Source: a virus (Duplodnaviria > Heunggongvirae > Uroviricota > Caudoviricetes). From it: a stretch of DNA of 35,274 bases. The notes under the pieces are model-generated. The model was not told where the DNA came from. It did not search any database and was given only the letters and a program-made list of their open reading frames with translations. The DNA lies in IMG/VR virus record IMGVR_UViG_2897352509_000012; one strand, given 5' to 3'. Positions 1-27,436 of this stretch are shown piece after piece. The translations under genes were made by a program, and so were the position numbers. The stretch's first letter is position 1; each line of letters opens with the position of its first letter.

Positions 1-1362
1 ATGTTTAAACCGGAACTCCTTTCCCCGGCGGGAACGCTGAAAAATATGCGTTACGCTTTCGCTTATGGCGCAGATGCTGTTTATGCGGGCCAGCCGCGTT
101 ACTCCCTGCGTGTGCGCAACAACGAATTCAACCACGAAAATCTTCAGCTCGGCATCAATGAAGCCCACGCGCTGGGGAAAAAGTTTTATGTCGTGGTCAA
201 CATTGCCCCGCACAACGCCAAGCTGAAAACCTTTATCCGTGACCTGAAACCGGTGGTGGAAATGGGGCCGGATGCGCTGATTATGTCCGATCCGGGGCTG
301 ATTATGCTGGTGCGCGAGCACTTCCCTAAAATGCCGATCCACCTCTCGGTGCAGGCTAACGCCGTAAACTGGGCGACGGTGAAATTCTGGCAGCAAATGG
401 GCCTGACCCGCGTGATCCTCTCTCGCGAGCTGTCGCTGGAAGAGATTGAAGAGATCCGCCATCAGGTGCCGGATATGGAGATCGAGATCTTCGTTCACGG
501 CGCACTGTGCATGGCCTACTCCGGTCGCTGCCTGCTCTCTGGCTATATCAACAAGCGCGATCCGAACCAGGGTACCTGCACCAACGCCTGCCGCTGGGAG
601 TACAACGTCCAGGAAGGGAAAGAAGATGACGTTGGCAACATCGTACACAAGTACGAGCCGATTCCGGTGCAAAATGTTGAGCCGACGCTAGGTATCGGCG
701 CGCCAACCGACAAAGTGTTTATGATCGAAGAAGCCCAGCGTCCGGGCGAGTATATGACCGCGTTTGAAGATGAGCACGGCACTTACATCATGAACTCGAA
801 AGATCTGCGCGCCATCGCCCATGTAGAACGCCTGACCAAAATGGGCGTGCATTCGCTGAAAATCGAAGGCCGTACTAAATCTTTCTACTATTGCGCACGC
901 ACCGCACAGGTTTATCGTAAAGCTATCGATGATGCCGCTGCGGGCAAACCGTTCGATACCAGCCTGCTGGAAACTCTGGAAGGTCTGGCGCATCGTGGCT
1001 ATACCGAAGGTTTCCTGCGTCGTCATACTCACGACGATTATCAGAACTACGAATACGGTTATTCGGTTTCTGACCGCCAGCAGTTTGTTGGTGAGTTTAC
1101 CGGTGAGCGCAAGGGGGACCTCGCGGCGGTAGCGGTGAAAAATAAATTCTCCGTTGGCGACAGCCTTGAGCTGATGACGCCGCAAGGCAACATTAACTTT
1201 ACCCTTGAGCAGATGGAAAACGCCAAAGGCGAAGCTATGCCGGTAGCACCAGGCGATGGTTATACTGTGTGGCTCCCGGTGCCGCAGGATCTTGAGCTAA
1301 ATTACGCTCTGCTGATGCGTAATTTCTCCGGGGAAACCACGCGTAACCCCCACGGTAAGTGA
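1..1362 (+). CDS. yegQ: U32-family peptidase YegQ (TrhP), full length 453 aa
   Basis: Uninterrupted 453-aa ORF starting MFKPELLSPAGTLKNMRYAF, recognised as E. coli YegQ; host gene at left edge of window. Confidence 0.9.
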   Translation: MFKPELLSPAGTLKNMRYAFAYGADAVYAGQPRYSLRVRNNEFNHENLQLGINEAHALGKKFYVVVNIAPHNAKLKTFIRDLKPVVEMGPDALIMSDPGLIMLVREHFPKMPIHLSVQANAVNWATVKFWQQMGLTRVILSRELSLEEIEEIRHQVPDMEIEIFVHGALCMAYSGRCLLSGYINKRDPNQGTCTNACRWEYNVQEGKEDDVGNIVHKYEPIPVQNVEPTLGIGAPTDKVFMIEEAQRPGEYMTAFEDEHGTYIMNSKDLRAIAHVERLTKMGVHSLKIEGRTKSFYYCARTAQVYRKAIDDAAAGKPFDTSLLETLEGLAHRGYTEGFLRRHTHDDYQNYEYGYSVSDRQQFVGEFTGERKGDLAAVAVKNKFSVGDSLELMTPQGNINFTLEQMENAKGEAMPVAPGDGYTVWLPVPQDLELNYALLMRNFSGETTRNPHGK

Positions 1363-1446: not shown

Positions 1447-1532
1447 GCTGAAAAACATAACCCATAAAATGCTAGCTGTACCAGGAACCACCTCCTTAGC
1501 CTGTGTAATGTCAGTTATTGGTGACATTTTTT
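1447..1532 (+). ncRNA. cyaR: CyaR (RyeE) sRNA with a non-canonical 3' end at the prophage junction
   Basis: 1447..1509 reads GCTGAAAAACATAACCCATAAAATGCTAGCTGTACCAGGAACCACCTCCTTAGCCTGTGTAAT, matching the CyaR 5' region as I remember it; then diverges into ATGTCA-GTTATTGG-TGACAT hairpin plus T6 (1508..1532). Confidence 0.75.
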
Positions 1533-1597: not shown

Positions 1598-1624
1598 AAA
1601 AAAAGCCCCTCGACTGAGGGGCTT
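1598..1624 (-). terminator. Rho-independent terminator downstream of ogr
   Basis: Plus strand AAAAAAA-GCCCCTCGACTGAGGGGC; on minus strand a GC-rich hairpin followed by T-run immediately after ogr stop. Confidence 0.6.
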
Positions 1625-1635
1625 TCTGTTTGTAA

Positions 1636-1854
1636 TTACATCCACATAATTTGCTGCCCTGACGGCAACGGGTGCGGCCTTACGGCGTGGACTTCTCCCG
1701 GCTTCACGATGTATCGCTGTACCGACTCATAAGTGATGAACGTGGCGCTGCAATTCACGTTCTGACACTGGTGATAACGCTCTTTTGTCGTGTCAGTGAT
1801 ATAGCGACTTGTACGCGCATGTGCGGCATGCTGGCATAAAGGACAATGAAACAT
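1636..1854 (-). CDS. ogr: Ogr late-gene transcriptional activator, C4 zinc finger, 72 aa
   Basis: MFHCPLCQHAAHARTSRYITDTTKERYHQCQNVNCSATF, recognised P2 Ogr with CxxC...CxxxxC; start taken at internal Met of 97-aa ORF. Confidence 0.9.
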   Translation of the reverse strand: MFHCPLCQHAAHARTSRYITDTTKERYHQCQNVNCSATFITYESVQRYIVKPGEVHAVRPHPLPSGQQIMWM

Positions 1855-8297: not shown

Positions 8298-8891
8298 CTA
8301 TTTGTCCCGGTTGGCTAAGGGCTGACACAATTTATTTTTTGTCACTGAGGCGGGGAATTTTTTATAGAGCGTGGACAGGCCAATATCAAAAATCAGTGCC
8401 ACGCGTTGACGTGATTCCCCTGCAGCCAGCAACCGCCCGGCCTGCTCCCACTCACTCGCGGTGAGTTTCGGACGTCTGCCACCAATACGACCTTTGGCTC
8501 TGGCCGCCTCCAGTCCGGCGCGTGTCCGCTCGACAATGAGTTCTCGTTCCATTTCAGCCAGGGCACCCATCACATGAAAGAAAAAACGCCCCATCGGCGT
8601 GCTGGTATCAATAGCATCCGTCAGGCTGCGAAAATTAATGCCGCGTTCGCGCAGTTCCTCAACCAGAATGACCAGATGCCGCATACTACGCCCCAGCCTG
8701 TCCAGCTTCCAGACTACCAGAGTGTCACCTGCTGATAATGTTCTGAGCAGTTTTTTTAGTCCCGGTCGGTCGGACTTCGTGCCGCTGATTTTATCCTCAA
8801 AAATCAGCTCACATCCTGCGCACTCCAGCGCGTTACGCTGCAATTCCGTGTTCTGGTCATTTGTTGATACACGAACATAACCTATACGCAT
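8298..8891 (-). CDS. Serine recombinase, Hin/Gin/Pin/Cin-family DNA invertase
   Basis: MRIGYVRVSTNDQNTELQ with catalytic Ser in YVRVSTxxQ, resolvase fold and C-terminal HTH; start taken at MRIGY. Confidence 0.85.
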   Translation of the reverse strand: MRIGYVRVSTNDQNTELQRNALECAGCELIFEDKISGTKSDRPGLKKLLRTLSAGDTLVVWKLDRLGRSMRHLVILVEELRERGINFRSLTDAIDTSTPMGRFFFHVMGALAEMERELIVERTRAGLEAARAKGRIGGRRPKLTASEWEQAGRLLAAGESRQRVALIFDIGLSTLYKKFPASVTKNKLCQPLANRDK

Positions 8892-8915
8892 AAAAATCCC
8901 TATAAAAACAGAATA

Positions 8916-9452
8916 ATGACACATCTTTCAACATCATATTTAACCGATTTCATAAACGTTGGTTTGGGAGAAGGCTCTGCATTACCTGTTGGTGTGCCTG
9001 TTCCATGGCCTTCAGCCACACCGCCAACAGGCTGGCTGAAATGCAACGGTGCGGCATTTTCTGCTGAAGAATACCCGGAACTGGCAAAGGCTTATCCAAC
9101 AAATAAATTACCTGATTTACGCGGTGAGTTTATTCGTGGCTGGGATGACGGGCGCGGTATTGATGCAGGACGTGTTTTATTGAGTATTCAGGCCGGAATG
9201 CTGGAAAAGCATAACCACTATTGGGGAATCTGGACTTCACGAACTAACGACCAGACTCTGGAAAGTTTTACAGGCACCACGATTTTAAAACAAATCACGC
9301 CCCTGTCTCCGGCCATTAACTTCGATAATTACCCAATTCCCAACCCGGCTATTACAGAGGGTGGTGTTGTTGCGGCAACGACTAAACCTGCAGGTGCGAA
9401 TGAAACACGCCCACGAAATGTCGCTTTTAACTATATTGTGAGGGCTGCATAA
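8916..9452 (+). CDS. Alternative tail-fibre C-terminal variable segment, silent in this orientation
   Basis: ORF crosses the crossover site at ...NVGLGEG...; sequence after the site is the alternative C-terminus; the ATG at 8916 is probably not a real start. Confidence 0.55.
   Translation: MTHLSTSYLTDFINVGLGEGSALPVGVPVPWPSATPPTGWLKCNGAAFSAEEYPELAKAYPTNKLPDLRGEFIRGWDDGRGIDAGRVLLSIQAGMLEKHNHYWGIWTSRTNDQTLESFTGTTILKQITPLSPAINFDNYPIPNPAITEGGVVAATTKPAGANETRPRNVAFNYIVRAA
8948..8973. repeat. Inversion crossover site (left), hix/gix-like
   Basis: TTCATAAACGTT-GGTTTGGGAGAAGG; inverted partner at 10849..10876; shared TGGTTTGGGAGAAG half-site with AA/TT centre. Confidence 0.6.
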
Positions 9453-10054
9453 TGAATAACGCAGAATTAAACAGTGAATTAATTGCCACTATGGCAGGAG
9501 AAATTACTGTTTATAACTTTGATGTTGAAACACTGGAATATATTTCCACGTCAACTGAATATCTTGCAGTGGGTGTCGGTATTCCAGCATATTCCTGTTT
9601 AGACGCTCCTGGTACATCTAAGGCTGGTTATACAATTTGCCGTTCTGTGGATTTAAAATCATGGGAATATGTGTCAGACCATCGCGGTGAAATCGTCTAT
9701 AACACCGAAACGGGAGATGCCAAAGAAATCACAGCACTAGGCGACTATCCCGAAAATACAACCACTATCGCCCCTTTATCTCCATACGATAAATGGGATG
9801 GTGAGAAATGGGTGACCGATACTGAGGCACAGCATAGCGCCGCAGTCGAAGCGGCAGAAGCACAACGCCAGTCACTGATTGATGCTGCAATGGCTTCCAT
9901 TAGTCTGATTCAGCTGAAATTACAAGCCGGACGGAAACTGACGCAGGCAGAAACAACCCGACTTAACGCTGTGCTGGATTACATTGACGCGGTGACGGCA
10001 ACAGATACCAGCACCGCGCCGGATGTCATCTGGCCTGAACTGCCGGAGGCGTAG
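9452..10054 (+). CDS. Tail fibre assembly chaperone (alternative set)
   Basis: 200-aa ORF directly after the alternative fibre segment; C-terminus (...LDYIDAVTATDTSTAPDVIWPELP) resembles that of the adjacent assembly protein (...LDYLDALELVDTSSAPDIEWPTPP). Confidence 0.7.
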   Translation: MNNAELNSELIATMAGEITVYNFDVETLEYISTSTEYLAVGVGIPAYSCLDAPGTSKAGYTICRSVDLKSWEYVSDHRGEIVYNTETGDAKEITALGDYPENTTTIAPLSPYDKWDGEKWVTDTEAQHSAAVEAAEAQRQSLIDAAMASISLIQLKLQAGRKLTQAETTRLNAVLDYIDAVTATDTSTAPDVIWPELPEA

Positions 10055-10478
10055 GCCATTCAATATCTGGCGCACTGGAGGTATCAACCAGTTCCAGTGC
10101 GTCCAGATAATCCAGCCACAAATTATATTGCGCCAGTTCCTCACCTTTCAGACGACCAATAGCGGCTTTACCGGGCCATTGCTTACTGTTCATGTATTCG
10201 TTGGCCTGGTTAATTAGTAGCTGTCTTTCTGATTCAGTAATTTCAATAAGTTCTTCATGCGTGGGTGGAGGAATCTCTGCCCACGCAGGCAGCCCATCAT
10301 CTCCGGCAATACGGATTTTTCCTTGTGGCGGTTCAGCCATAAACTCACTGATAATATTTTGATTTACTTCCTTAGCGTCTGATAAATCCCATCCCTCTGA
10401 TTTATATTTATCAATCATATCCACAGGGAAAAAAGCATTATGCCTTGCGCTATAAACATATTCGTTCATATAAATCAC
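10026..10478 (-). CDS. G: Tail fibre assembly chaperone (G-like, active set)
   Basis: 150-aa ORF directly downstream of H on the same strand; 3' end overlaps convergent assembly gene. Confidence 0.75.
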   Translation of the reverse strand: MIYMNEYVYSARHNAFFPVDMIDKYKSEGWDLSDAKEVNQNIISEFMAEPPQGKIRIAGDDGLPAWAEIPPPTHEELIEITESERQLLINQANEYMNSKQWPGKAAIGRLKGEELAQYNLWLDYLDALELVDTSSAPDIEWPTPPAVQAR

Positions 10479-23746: not shown

Positions 23747-25717
23747 TTAAAGGTCATCAATTAAACCTAAAGGCAAACCGTCCTCACCAACCGAGCTATA
23801 ATGAGCGATAATATTCGAAAGTTCACCAGTAGAAAACGAATTAGGCAAATCATTATCAACTAATATAATCTGGCACGGAACATTTTTTCTTTCTGCTTTT
23901 TGAACTGTATTCAATAGTTGTTCATAAATATTTTGATACTTCATCGGATCTGACATTCCCTCAAGGTCATCCTCGAATGCAAGAGTTTCTTTTGAATATT
24001 TTTCCTTGGTCTGTTTCCCTAAATATTTGCCAACCGTATCAAATATCAAAAGTAAAGGATGGTTAACATTATGATCTATTGCATAATCAAGAATAGACAA
24101 AAGATACCCAATAGAAGAAATAGTTCTCAAACCTCCGGATGTTATTTTAAAATATTCTTTTTCTCTTATAACAGGAATGTAATAGCTTTCAGAGATTTTT
24201 ATCCCCGTTCTGTTTTTGATATTAATACTCTTCAAATACTGACTAAATCTATCACCCAAACCTTGTAAAATGCCCTCCATGCTAGGTGCGTTTTTCTTTA
24301 ACGCCTCCAAGCGTTCAGTTAATGCTTCAATATCTTTTCTCAGTACCTGATACTTTTCAAGCAGTTCCTCTTGCTGGTTTCTAACCTTCAAATCTTTTAC
24401 TAACTGCTCCCTAACCTTCTCATTTTTTGAGATCTCTTTAATATAAAAATCTCTCTGAGTCAAGAATGGTGTAATCATTGACTGGCTTTCTTCGTCAATC
24501 AATTCTCTCAACTCGTCAAGTCGTTCATCTAATTCCTTTTTATAACCTGATTCTTTTTTTAATTTAAATGACATTTCTGAGATCATGTCATTAATATTTC
24601 GTCTACGTCGACTAAGTGAATTCAACTCTTCATTAAGATCTTTTTCTGATGAAATTTCAAATGGAAAATCAGAATCATCTATTTTAATGTGGCTATCACA
24701 GACTGGACAGGAAAATACTTCCTTATCCAATACACCAATGCGAGAATTTGCTGTTTTAATCGCTTTGAGTTTTTCAATATCATTATCATAGTCATTTTTT
24801 AACCGCGAATATTTATCAATCTTATCCTCAAGCGCAGTAATATTTAATATGCACTCTTTGTATTTAAGCGAAATAAAATTGTGAGCATCTTTCAATTCTG
24901 TATACTGTATGGAATCCGCTTTCATATTTTTATCGAGAGCAGACAAACCTGCAACAAGTTCTTCTAAAACAAGATCTATCCTATTAATCTCATCATCAAT
25001 TGATTCAATCGTTTCATAGTCTGTATCGCGAAGAAATTCAGATATTATCTGATACTTCCTATTTAATTCCGTTACTAAACTACTTTTTGCAGATATTTCA
25101 CCTTGGAGTCTGGCGATGCTTTCATCCAACACATTGAACATGTATTTAAAAACTTCTTTCGTAAATGCGTAGCGGGACCAATCACCCAATCGCAAGAAAG
25201 ATTTACTACCAATATCATCCTGACTTACATAAACAAATTTATATATATTTCTAAAACTTAACCTGCGCATCTGTGAATGAGCTTTAGAAGGAGACACCTT
25301 AATTTCAATCTTTGGAAAATTAAGACTATCAAGTAAAAACTCCGAAAAAACACCATCAACATTTGATAATGGGCTATAATTAGGAGCGTATTTTTTCGGA
25401 AAATGTTTATGTAAATCATCAAACTTACAACGATAAACTTCTATTGCTTTTTTATGATCATAGATATCTCTTACGATTGTGAATACAGTATCATTGATCA
25501 CTACTTCAAGAGCAGCATAGTTTACTGATGTTTTTATTTCATCTGCTAAATCTATAGAGCTAGCACCTAAAAGATAATTAATAAACTCCAGAATGCTTGA
25601 CTTACCTGTGTCAGAGTCTCCGTAGATAACATTGAGACCTTTATAAAAAGTAGTGACGTAGTTTTTACGAACGCCAACAAGAATCAAACTATTGATATTG
25701 AGATATGATTTCATCAT
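23747..25717 (-). CDS. SMC/Rad50-like ABC ATPase with coiled coil and CxxC zinc hook (cargo gene 3)
   Basis: Walker A GDSDTGKS (res 33-40), heptad-rich middle with CPVC (res 337-340), signature TSGGL (526-530), Walker B LLLIFD (555-560). Confidence 0.75.
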   Translation of the reverse strand: MMKSYLNINSLILVGVRKNYVTTFYKGLNVIYGDSDTGKSSILEFINYLLGASSIDLADEIKTSVNYAALEVVINDTVFTIVRDIYDHKKAIEVYRCKFDDLHKHFPKKYAPNYSPLSNVDGVFSEFLLDSLNFPKIEIKVSPSKAHSQMRRLSFRNIYKFVYVSQDDIGSKSFLRLGDWSRYAFTKEVFKYMFNVLDESIARLQGEISAKSSLVTELNRKYQIISEFLRDTDYETIESIDDEINRIDLVLEELVAGLSALDKNMKADSIQYTELKDAHNFISLKYKECILNITALEDKIDKYSRLKNDYDNDIEKLKAIKTANSRIGVLDKEVFSCPVCDSHIKIDDSDFPFEISSEKDLNEELNSLSRRRRNINDMISEMSFKLKKESGYKKELDERLDELRELIDEESQSMITPFLTQRDFYIKEISKNEKVREQLVKDLKVRNQQEELLEKYQVLRKDIEALTERLEALKKNAPSMEGILQGLGDRFSQYLKSINIKNRTGIKISESYYIPVIREKEYFKITSGGLRTISSIGYLLSILDYAIDHNVNHPLLLIFDTVGKYLGKQTKEKYSKETLAFEDDLEGMSDPMKYQNIYEQLLNTVQKAERKNVPCQIILVDNDLPNSFSTGELSNIIAHYSSVGEDGLPLGLIDDL

Positions 25718-26226
25718 TTCTCCTTGAAGACTTGATTTATAACAGAGTTTAACTTAGAGGTAGGCAATGCTTGTAGCGGTAACAATGCTTCGGATAGTCG
25801 TTTTATTTCTTTAAAATATCCATCAGTCAATGAGCTAGCAAATTCCTTACCTTTTTCAGATAAAAATAATTTAACACTCTCATTATTTTTTTTCTCAGCT
25901 GAGAGCAATCCCCGCAATGACATAATTTTTATAAGATATTTCACTTTGGAATTGTCGAATAAGATATCTACATTTGTTGAAAAACTCTTTATTGTATAAG
26001 TTAACTGGGACTCGACACAAGCAGGCTTTTTCCCCGAAACTGTAAGAGCATAATCAATTTTTGATGGGTTTTTTATCAGATACATAAAAATTTGTATTTT
26101 ATTAATATCTAATGATAACACTCCTTTTTTGCTATGAGATAATATAGATATAGCAATGGCAAGCATAGCAAAATTCAAGCTATACTCTTCATCAAGAGGA
26201 ATATACGGCAAGTTATTTTTCTTCAT
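25714..26226 (-). CDS. Small protein of unknown function, 170 aa (cargo gene 2)
   Basis: ORF overlaps both neighbours (14 nt and ATGA overlap), same AT-rich composition; no recognisable motifs. Confidence 0.6.
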   Translation of the reverse strand: MKKNNLPYIPLDEEYSLNFAMLAIAISILSHSKKGVLSLDINKIQIFMYLIKNPSKIDYALTVSGKKPACVESQLTYTIKSFSTNVDILFDNSKVKYLIKIMSLRGLLSAEKKNNESVKLFLSEKGKEFASSLTDGYFKEIKRLSEALLPLQALPTSKLNSVINQVFKEK

Positions 26227-27436
26227 GATTACCTCGCCGTAATTGCTCCAAAGTTTCTACGCTGGTTTCAGATGACCAGACAATATCCCTGTCATTTTTG
26301 TTAGCCAGTTGATGCAACATTCCTTTCTTATGTATCGTTTCTAAACTTTTTATAAGAGAATCTAACGACGACTTATCCTCTTGGGCTATTCGTCTATGAA
26401 CAGCAGCAATAAATTTATCTGGGGAAATTGAATTCGCGATATATTGCTCATACTCTTCCTGGTAAATCTCCCTTATTTTAGAATACAAATGACCAAGTAG
26501 TTTCCTATCGTAATCACTCGTAAAAATATTTCTCGCAAGCTCAGCATTATAATAATATTCCTTTGCATGCATAGCGATATCCTGATGTATATCTGCGACA
26601 ATCATTTTTAAGACGAAATACTCATTATCATATTGTTTCTCATCAGAAAAACGCTCAACACATATCTTCTTGGGTGCTTCTAAATTTATCTGCTGAATAA
26701 ATTGCTTTACCGCAACAAACACTGTAGACGAGCTGTTTTCGGGCTTGCAAATTGAGCTATGCCCTTCATTAACTGCAATTGAGTTATTTCGTTCACTATC
26801 CATCGGTAATGCGCTTTTTTTATCAACTATAGTGTCATGAGAACCATAAACATATCTAGTGATAGGAAGTTTTTTGCTACAATTTATCCAGCGCCTATTC
26901 AACGTATCGGTCGCTTCACTTAACAATCCAAGATCTACTAACTGAGCATTTGAAGATACCATTGAAGTTATATTCGCCAATTTAGCACCAAAGTGAGGGA
27001 CTGCTAACGAAATGAATCCAATTATATTAGATTGTTCCTCATGCTCAACTTTTTTTAGAATTAGATTTTTTGATATTACCCCCCCCATACTATGGGCGAT
27101 TATTATAATTCGAGAGTAATCACTTAGCGTTACCCTAATCTCAGTATACAATAACTCAGCTATTTCATCAGTTGGTAAATTTCTCTCTAACTTATTTTTC
27201 TTAGAGAAAATACGAGCCCATAATCCTGACGTTTTAGCATACGTTTGTGTAAATTTGGTGAAATAATTGAAACATGCAATATCAAATACATTGCCAATGT
27301 CTTCATCTTCTGCTAATAGTTTTGGAAATGAAGTTTCTTTATTAAAGTTCCATGTTTCCAAACCACCATTTAATCCATGTACAAATAGTATCAGGCTATC
27401 TTTTTTCTCGTGGCTTATCCATTCAACCATGCTCAT
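26213..27436 (-). CDS. Lipase-like alpha/beta hydrolase fused to C-terminal helical domain, 407 aa (cargo gene 1)
   Basis: HG oxyanion motif (LILFVHGLNGG), AHSMG nucleophile pentapeptide (Ser116), downstream GSHDT (Asp201) and EGHSS (His226); C-terminal about 160 aa helical, Tyr/Glu-rich. Confidence 0.75.
   Translation of the reverse strand: MSMVEWISHEKKDSLILFVHGLNGGLETWNFNKETSFPKLLAEDEDIGNVFDIACFNYFTKFTQTYAKTSGLWARIFSKKNKLERNLPTDEIAELLYTEIRVTLSDYSRIIIIAHSMGGVISKNLILKKVEHEEQSNIIGFISLAVPHFGAKLANITSMVSSNAQLVDLGLLSEATDTLNRRWINCSKKLPITRYVYGSHDTIVDKKSALPMDSERNNSIAVNEGHSSICKPENSSSTVFVAVKQFIQQINLEAPKKICVERFSDEKQYDNEYFVLKMIVADIHQDIAMHAKEYYYNAELARNIFTSDYDRKLLGHLYSKIREIYQEEYEQYIANSISPDKFIAAVHRRIAQEDKSSLDSLIKSLETIHKKGMLHQLANKNDRDIVWSSETSVETLEQLRRGNHEEK

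Follow-up and report, generated by a model that had tools for sequence, protein, structure and literature searches.

A P2-like prophage replaces the terminator arm of the small RNA gene cyaR with the att core of a pflA-targeting relative in one Escherichia coli O157:H7 genome

Phages that insert into tRNA or small RNA (sRNA) genes are assumed to bring with them a faithful copy of the 3′ end of the gene. CyaR, an Hfq-binding sRNA, is expressed in a CRP-dependent manner and represses ompX, nadE and luxS. Its gene, cyaR (ryeE), is a documented insertion site of P2-type phages (PMC3032704; PMC3603311), and the annotated attP core of phage P2 (AF063097) is a 27-mer, AATCTCCCTTACACGGGCTTATTTTTT, identical to the exact last 27 nt of cyaR. 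Insertion of P2 at cyaR normally rebuilds the gene exactly from this 27-bp core copy. Here we analyse a viral record of 35,274 nt (IMGVR_UViG_2897352509_000012; the window, meaning this whole stretch of DNA), which is identical, over the stretch compared, to the genome of E. coli O157:H7 strain TR01 (NZ_CP033605.1). Because ordinary P2 insertion restores cyaR, the rewriting of the gene in TR01 is an exception, seen in one genome. Taken as a whole, the explanation developed below, which joins a chimeric junction, impaired CyaR termination and an origin by integrase exchange plus homologous recombination, is in our judgement moderately probable.

The prophage body of about 32 kb (1510–33466) has the P2 gene order, from ogr/D to C/int, in the list of open reading frames and in BLAST comparisons, and for most of its length it matches two annotated P2-like prophages at 94–99% identity. 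Its first gene, the late-gene activator ogr (1636–1854, minus strand; annotated ogrK in TR01; Pfam Ogr_Delta, E = 1.9e-21), follows an ogr-side arm of attP (1533–1601) that, by alignment to the annotated P2 attP region, holds an IHF site and arm-type Int sites. At the other end, int (32374–33387, plus strand) encodes an integrase identical to the Int of phage P2 at 337 of 337 residues, and int, the adjoining arm and the core together have 99.0% DNA identity to P2. The int-side arm (33388–33466) is identical to P2 in the alignment and carries, by homology, arm-type Int sites and Cox sites. It is followed by the 27-bp P2 core (33467–33493, plus strand), which is the orphaned canonical 3′ end of cyaR, and by a bacterial flank with yegR and yegS (33494–35274) that matches the empty site of strain ATCC 8739. 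Because the core is the annotated P2 attP core and the flank is empty-site sequence, the int-side junction is a textbook one of P2 arm, 27-bp core and chromosome; the complete core is likewise present in 759 of the 763 complete E. coli genomes that carry the int-side arm. The first-pass annotation had correctly located the canonical 3′ end at this junction but had placed it at 33457–33483, about 10–13 nt too low: the canonical 3′ half lies at 33470–33493, preceded by the shared AAT at 33467–33469.

Several features of the prophage and its site stand apart from the junction. Residue 264 of Int (33163–33165), six residues ahead of the HALRH motif, is methionine in the window and in phage P2 and threonine in the most widespread E. 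coli prophage Int (WP_000985261.1); a T264M change as the cause of the altered junction was ruled out because M264 is the residue of phage P2 itself. Between portal gene Q and replication gene A lies a Lamassu cargo (23747–27436, minus strand) of LmuA (407 aa), LmuC (170 aa) and LmuB (656 aa), identified by PADLOC (E = 3.5e-108, 1.5e-52 and 1.5e-235, respectively) and by Pfam ABC-3C domains, and this stretch is without a match in the two comparison prophages. The region least similar to those prophages (8298–10478; 82–91% identity) has a recombinase-family open reading frame (8298–8924) beside oppositely oriented tail-fibre and assembly reading frames, and looks like an invertible tail-fibre segment. 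Just downstream of cyaR, the segment 33505–33540 agrees with the ogr-side arm (1561–1596) in 30 positions of 36 and takes in one arm-type Int repeat. The same likeness is found in prophage-free strains (ATCC 8739 empty site), which suggests that the ‘empty’ site bears an ancient P2-like scar.

At the opposite end of the prophage, the bacterial gene yegQ (trhP; 1–1362, plus strand; an open reading frame annotated as yegQ in TR01) is followed by an 84-nt intergenic region (1363–1446) that holds the cyaR promoter, and then by cyaR nt 1–63 (GCTGAAAAACATAACCCATAAAATGCTAGCTGTACCAGGAACCACCTCCTTAGCCTGTGTAAT; 1447–1509, plus strand), which comprise the 5′ region, the seed hairpin and the 5′ arm of the terminator stem. 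Because the stretch that runs from the yegQ stop codon to cyaR nt 63 (1363–1509) agrees at 147 of 147 positions with a K-12-type strain, prophage-free ATCC 8739 and O157:H7 BB24-1, the promoter and seed are untouched, and the earlier claim that the first 63 nt of CyaR are intact holds. Its companion claim, that the prophage parts these nucleotides from the canonical 3′ half, is borne out by alignment to the references: the K-12-type strain, ATCC 8739 and typical O157:H7 all read CTCCCTTACACGGGCTTATTTTTT after nt 63, and in the window these last 24 nt are swapped for GTCAGTTATTGGTGACATTTTTT (1510–1532). The 27-bp core found at the int side is not repeated at this ogr-side junction, where 10 of its first 20 positions are shared, namely AAT and scattered bases.

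The Rfam model of the family, RF00112 (CyaR_RyeE), reflects this partial identity. It matches 1445–1531 with 55.4 bits, above the gathering score of 47, compared with 100.7 bits for canonical cyaR, and its alignment places eight non-standard pairs in the terminator helix of the window gene. Score, position downstream of yegQ, promoter and seed hairpin all place the locus in the family, and the 11-bp terminator helix with its U-tail, the Hfq-binding module, is missing from the window cyaR together with the 3′ arm. The gene thus keeps its promoter, seed and 5′ stem arm and is without its 3′ stem arm and its own U-tail. Canonical full-length cyaR, by contrast, is present in 5,421 of 5,426 complete E. 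coli genomes, the canonical sequence at the position of the yegQ–ogr junction being CTCCCTTACACGGGC; TR01 matches canonical cyaR over nt 1–63 only and is the lowest-ranked among the matches listed. Strain EcPF7, whose site is empty, has a chromosomal single-base variant, ACACAGGC, that gives the terminator stem a U-A pair in place of a U-G wobble, an example of natural variation in the stem that keeps pairing.

The sequence that has taken the place of the cyaR 3′ end belongs to another family of P2-like phages. From AAT (1507) onwards, no difference separates the window from the junction on the pflB side of pflA-type P2-like prophages (for example, that of strain 1409), and the replacement also matches the attP of the free phages Peduovirus P24A7b and OU784746. 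On the basis of these two matches, the phage-borne substitute (1510–1532, plus strand) divides into the pflA-type att core, GTCAGTTATTGGT (1510–1522), and GACATTTTTT. The core, as read from the pflA-side junction and free-phage attP, corresponds to codons 2–5 of pflA, and in the window it is present with its GACATTTTTTGATATC arm, identical to the strain 1409 junction and the P24A7b attP. In about 405 E. coli genomes, the pflB intergenic region is joined to this pflA-type arm. The cognate Int of that family, a protein of 331 aa, agrees with P2 Int at only 173 of 340 positions (51%). Neither this integrase nor an insertion between pflB and pflA is found in the window, which has P2 Int and the cyaR location. 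The att region is therefore chimeric: Int, the arm on the int side and the cyaR location are those of P2, and the core half and the arm on the ogr side are those of the pflA-targeting family. Rightwards of about position 1545 the two families show homology, which leaves only about 36 bp as diagnostic. The first-pass annotation had included neither the source of the replacement, namely the att core of a P2 relative that targets pflA, nor the fact that P2 normally rebuilds cyaR.

Two other accounts of the core were set aside. The sequence TGGTGACA, found in both junctions, was ruled out as the true core by the pflA-side junction, which shows GTCAGTTATTGGT; and the idea that P2 had picked up the core from a secondary site in pflA, by a crossover at the T-run, was ruled out because free phages already have GTCAGTTATTGGT in their attP together with a different Int. 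The pflA-type insertion has consequences of its own at its native site. In strain 1409 (segments 31660–31800 and 2440–2560), it replaces the start of pflA, the annotated N-terminus of PflA being MSNLTNCNTTENTATAGATK followed by SVIGRIH..., and the pflB side of the prophage retains a five-codon pflA stub (MSVIGDIF*). In Yersinia phage vB_YpM_117 (1400–1560), the pflA-type int is truncated at residue 250 by a deletion that joins an int-internal AATGCCAGTTATT to the attP core CAGTTATTGGTGACA, taking out the 3′ end of int and the int-side arm.

A second prophage that rewrites the same terminator provides a point of reference. In strain UTAK-6, a P2-like prophage at cyaR, with an Int 83% identical to P2 Int, has an attP in which only CCCTTAC agrees with cyaR at the point of exchange. 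In the terminator 3′ arm that its copy gives to CyaR, two substitutions are compensatory (ACACGGGC to ACGCAGGC); the resulting hairpin folds at −16.2 kcal/mol, so that its strength is kept. Among the matches listed, UTAK-6 is the only record with this full junction at 100% identity (UTAK-6 segments 138–250 and 31900–32080).

How could the chimera in TR01 have arisen? At the ogr-side junction, cyaR nt 1–63 is joined to the pflA-type core and arm at the trinucleotide AAT. AAT is all that cyaR and the pflA-type core have in common there, so homologous recombination cannot make this left junction. We tentatively favour, at a little short of an even chance, an origin in which an off-target integrase exchange between a P2/cyaR-type core and a pflA-type core would have created the junction and homologous recombination between the two approximately 97% identical phage genomes would have completed the chimera, with the events in either order. 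An integrase-independent origin, by illegitimate recombination at the AAT microhomology or by multi-step gene conversion, is in our view unlikely, although a serious contender: AAT alone is shared exactly at the junction, and a short-repeat deletion at the same core is known in phage vB_YpM_117. Against it, the point of joining coincides with base 1 of the 27-bp P2 core, within the core that integrase protects; the pattern AATnTCnnTTA is common to both cores; and the reciprocal junction, on the int side, has the normal P2 form without any flaw. The combination of a core-edge junction, shared bases and a perfect int side makes a random break unlikely.

In favour of an integrase exchange, P2 Int is capable of off-target insertion. 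One such insertion, in strain OkiPb01694, interrupts abrB. Another lies in a hypothetical gene of a 204–216-kb plasmid family (for example, NZ_CP104682.1) from Klebsiella, E. coli, Citrobacter, Enterobacter and Providencia; the same plasmid junction is found in 14 PLSDB records, and 12 of the 15 plasmid matches are predicted to be conjugative. In both insertions, Int is one residue (T264 for M264) off the Int of phage P2. Because all plasmid matches trace to one event, two independent off-target events are available for comparison, together with UTAK-6. In these three events, host sequence gives way to phage sequence between core positions 7 and 10, whereas in TR01 it does so at position 3/4, which is 4–6 bp further 5′. 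This displacement speaks for the integrase-independent origin, and the TR01 switch could fit an integrase product only as the other edge of an overlap region of about 7 bp (TCTCCCT), a stretch that corresponds to the loop of the terminator hairpin of CyaR. A precedent exists in lambda, whose secondary-site recombination tolerates a mismatched overlap region at low frequency (PMC2817482).

The more consequential question is what the new 3′ end does to CyaR. The canonical cyaR terminator has an 11-bp stem with G-C pairs abutting the U-tail and folds at −15.9 kcal/mol. Its replacement, AAUGUCA-GUUAUUGG-UGACAUU (1507–1528, plus strand), folds at −6.3 to −6.8 kcal/mol; it has 7 bp, of which two are G-C pairs, with A-U pairs beside the U-tract, and the two A-U pairs that close it take up two of the six U residues. 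The description of the replacement as a short, AT-rich and weaker hairpin, given in the first-pass annotation, is thus upheld when both 3′ ends are folded (−6.8 against −15.9 kcal/mol). A terminator scan that seeks a G+C-rich stem directly before a T run makes no call at 1507–1532, whereas the same scan calls the canonical cyaR end in ATCC 8739. The next terminator-like hairpin on the cyaR strand, at 1602–1625 (plus strand), has a 10-pair stem with six G-C pairs followed by CTGTTTGT and folds at −17.1 kcal/mol; its counterpart in P2 is the annotated rho-independent terminator of ogr and the F operon. Because the variant hairpin is weak, fails the terminator scan and coincides with a drop in the Rfam score, it is likely that CyaR terminates poorly in TR01 and that transcription reads through to the ogr terminator at 1602–1625.

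The predicted course of events is as follows. RNA polymerase would meet a 7-bp, A/U-rich hairpin and then only four free U residues, and most transcripts would run on to 1602–1625, giving an RNA of about 180 nt with an internal U-tract; this RNA would load Hfq poorly and repress ompX and nadE more weakly. Even with the wild-type CyaR terminator, read-through in a reporter reaches 41%, and read-through products of sRNA genes are non-functional and bind Hfq poorly (PMC9765468). Since the variant hairpin is much weaker than this already leaky one, we infer that most transcripts shift to the non-functional form and that CyaR function is weakened in TR01, which, given the poor Hfq binding of read-through products, would be expected to behave as a partial loss-of-function cyaR mutant.

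Could the change nevertheless be neutral? AAUGUCA/UGACAUU followed by U6 might terminate often enough, or processing might give a stable 3′ end, so that the level and function of CyaR are about normal. The variant is still an inverted repeat directly before six T residues, the seed and promoter are unaltered, and a weak hairpin with U6 may still stop a useful fraction of transcripts, from which 3′ trimming could yield a stable species; the leakiness of the canonical terminator points the same way. We nonetheless hold neutrality to be distinctly unlikely. The variant hairpin is 9 kcal/mol weaker, with the poor base composition noted above, and does not qualify as a terminator in the scan; moreover, the conservation of the 3′ end in 5,421 of 5,426 genomes, together with the compensatory changes by which UTAK-6, the sole other phage-rewritten allele seen, retains pairing, argues that the stem is under selection.

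A further-reaching reading, which we regard as improbable, takes the TR01 prophage to be a trapped intermediate in att-site switching between two P2-like integration modules. The overlap region of P2 Int would then be bracketed, by the TR01 switch at position 3/4 and the off-target switches at positions 7–10, to approximately TCTCCCT in the loop of the CyaR terminator; the lysogen would be a natural cyaR hypomorph, and precise excision would restore wild-type cyaR. If so, the prophage would act as a reversible switch on a core sRNA.

The junction is rare. Among 5,426 complete E. coli genomes, the join of cyaR to GTCAG occurs at 100% identity only in TR01, and it was not found beyond TR01 in GTDB species representatives (one genome per species), JGI metagenome contigs or IMG/VR. 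In these same four collections, neither a hybrid attP (P2 arm plus GTCAG) nor the reciprocal junction of pflB with the P2 core was found.

Its presence in a single assembly, and the fact that P2-like prophages are repeats that complicate assembly (PMC3032704), raise the concern that the junction is an assembly or sequencing artefact of TR01. We consider this very improbable. The join links unique cyaR sequence to a 17-nt core, and because the pflA-type core occurs once in TR01, collapsed repeats cannot make it; the prophage open reading frames are also intact, and where the flanks depart from other O157:H7 strains, they do so by substitutions at third positions rather than by indel noise. The remaining suggestion, that GTCAGTTATTGGTGACA is a natural chromosomal cyaR allele older than the prophage, is refuted: empty-site, prophage-free and remnant-bearing strains end canonically, as do 5,421 of 5,426 genomes, the variant belongs to the attP of free phage genomes, and no support for such an allele was found. 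The refuting case named in the first-pass annotation, prophage-free reference genes that already have this ending, therefore does not apply.

The bacterial flanks (1–1500 and 33500–34500) differ by about 1–2% from O157:H7 BB24-1; in yegQ, 13 of the 15 substitutions are at third codon positions. This divergence suggests that the whole segment may have been imported from another lineage by recombination. The view that the TR01 prophage is the typical O157:H7 cyaR prophage with a swapped end is not supported, as it differs by 1–6% along its whole length and the flanks differ too.

A P2 prophage in the 3′ end of cyaR is known; what is new, as far as we have found, is a non-restoring junction that removes the terminator arm of the sRNA. 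The TR01 locus is a natural counter-example to the assumption that inserting phages bring a faithful copy of the gene end, and it concerns a core CRP-controlled sRNA of an EHEC strain. In lysogens, the 3′ arm of the CyaR terminator is always a phage copy, which can be faithful, as in P2, changed in a conservative way, as in UTAK-6, or unrelated, as in TR01. Should the predicted termination defect prove real, this strain would offer a natural allele linking terminator strength to Hfq loading and CyaR function. The chimeric junction is also a data point, from a single genome, on the exchange of integration specificity among P2-like phages.

Each of the closest known systems shares part of this configuration. 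A saf (‘site affinity’) variant of P2 is described. The saf mutants and secondary-site insertions of lambda resemble TR01 in that an exchange with a site that is not identical has changed the att core, the heterology lying within the overlap region or beside it (PMC2817482); saf changes, however, touch few overlap bases, whereas TR01 has a whole core half-site and arm from another phage family. The engineered or factor-induced terminator read-through of SgrS, CyaR and GcvB (PMC9765468) shares with the predicted effect in TR01 a weakened terminator that yields RNA unbound by Hfq, but the TR01 case would be natural and prophage-caused. The pflA-targeting P2-like phages (P24A7b, OU784746, the prophage of strain 1409 and possibly the PhiECO1 group of PMC3448106) have the same ogr-side core and arm from AAT onwards; they sit between pflB and pflA, use their own 331-aa Int and give PflA a phage-encoded N-terminus, whereas the window has neither that Int nor that location. 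In UTAK-6, as in TR01, the phage supplies a terminator arm unlike that of the host, conservatively in the former and disruptively in the latter. Finally, ordinary P2 lysogens (the K-12 ogr-D′ remnant, Wphi2 of E. coli W and the O157:H7 P2-like prophage) have the same integrase, site, int-side junction and 27-bp core as TR01, but they duplicate that core and regenerate cyaR, whereas the ogr-side copy in TR01 is an unrelated core and the terminator of the sRNA is lost.
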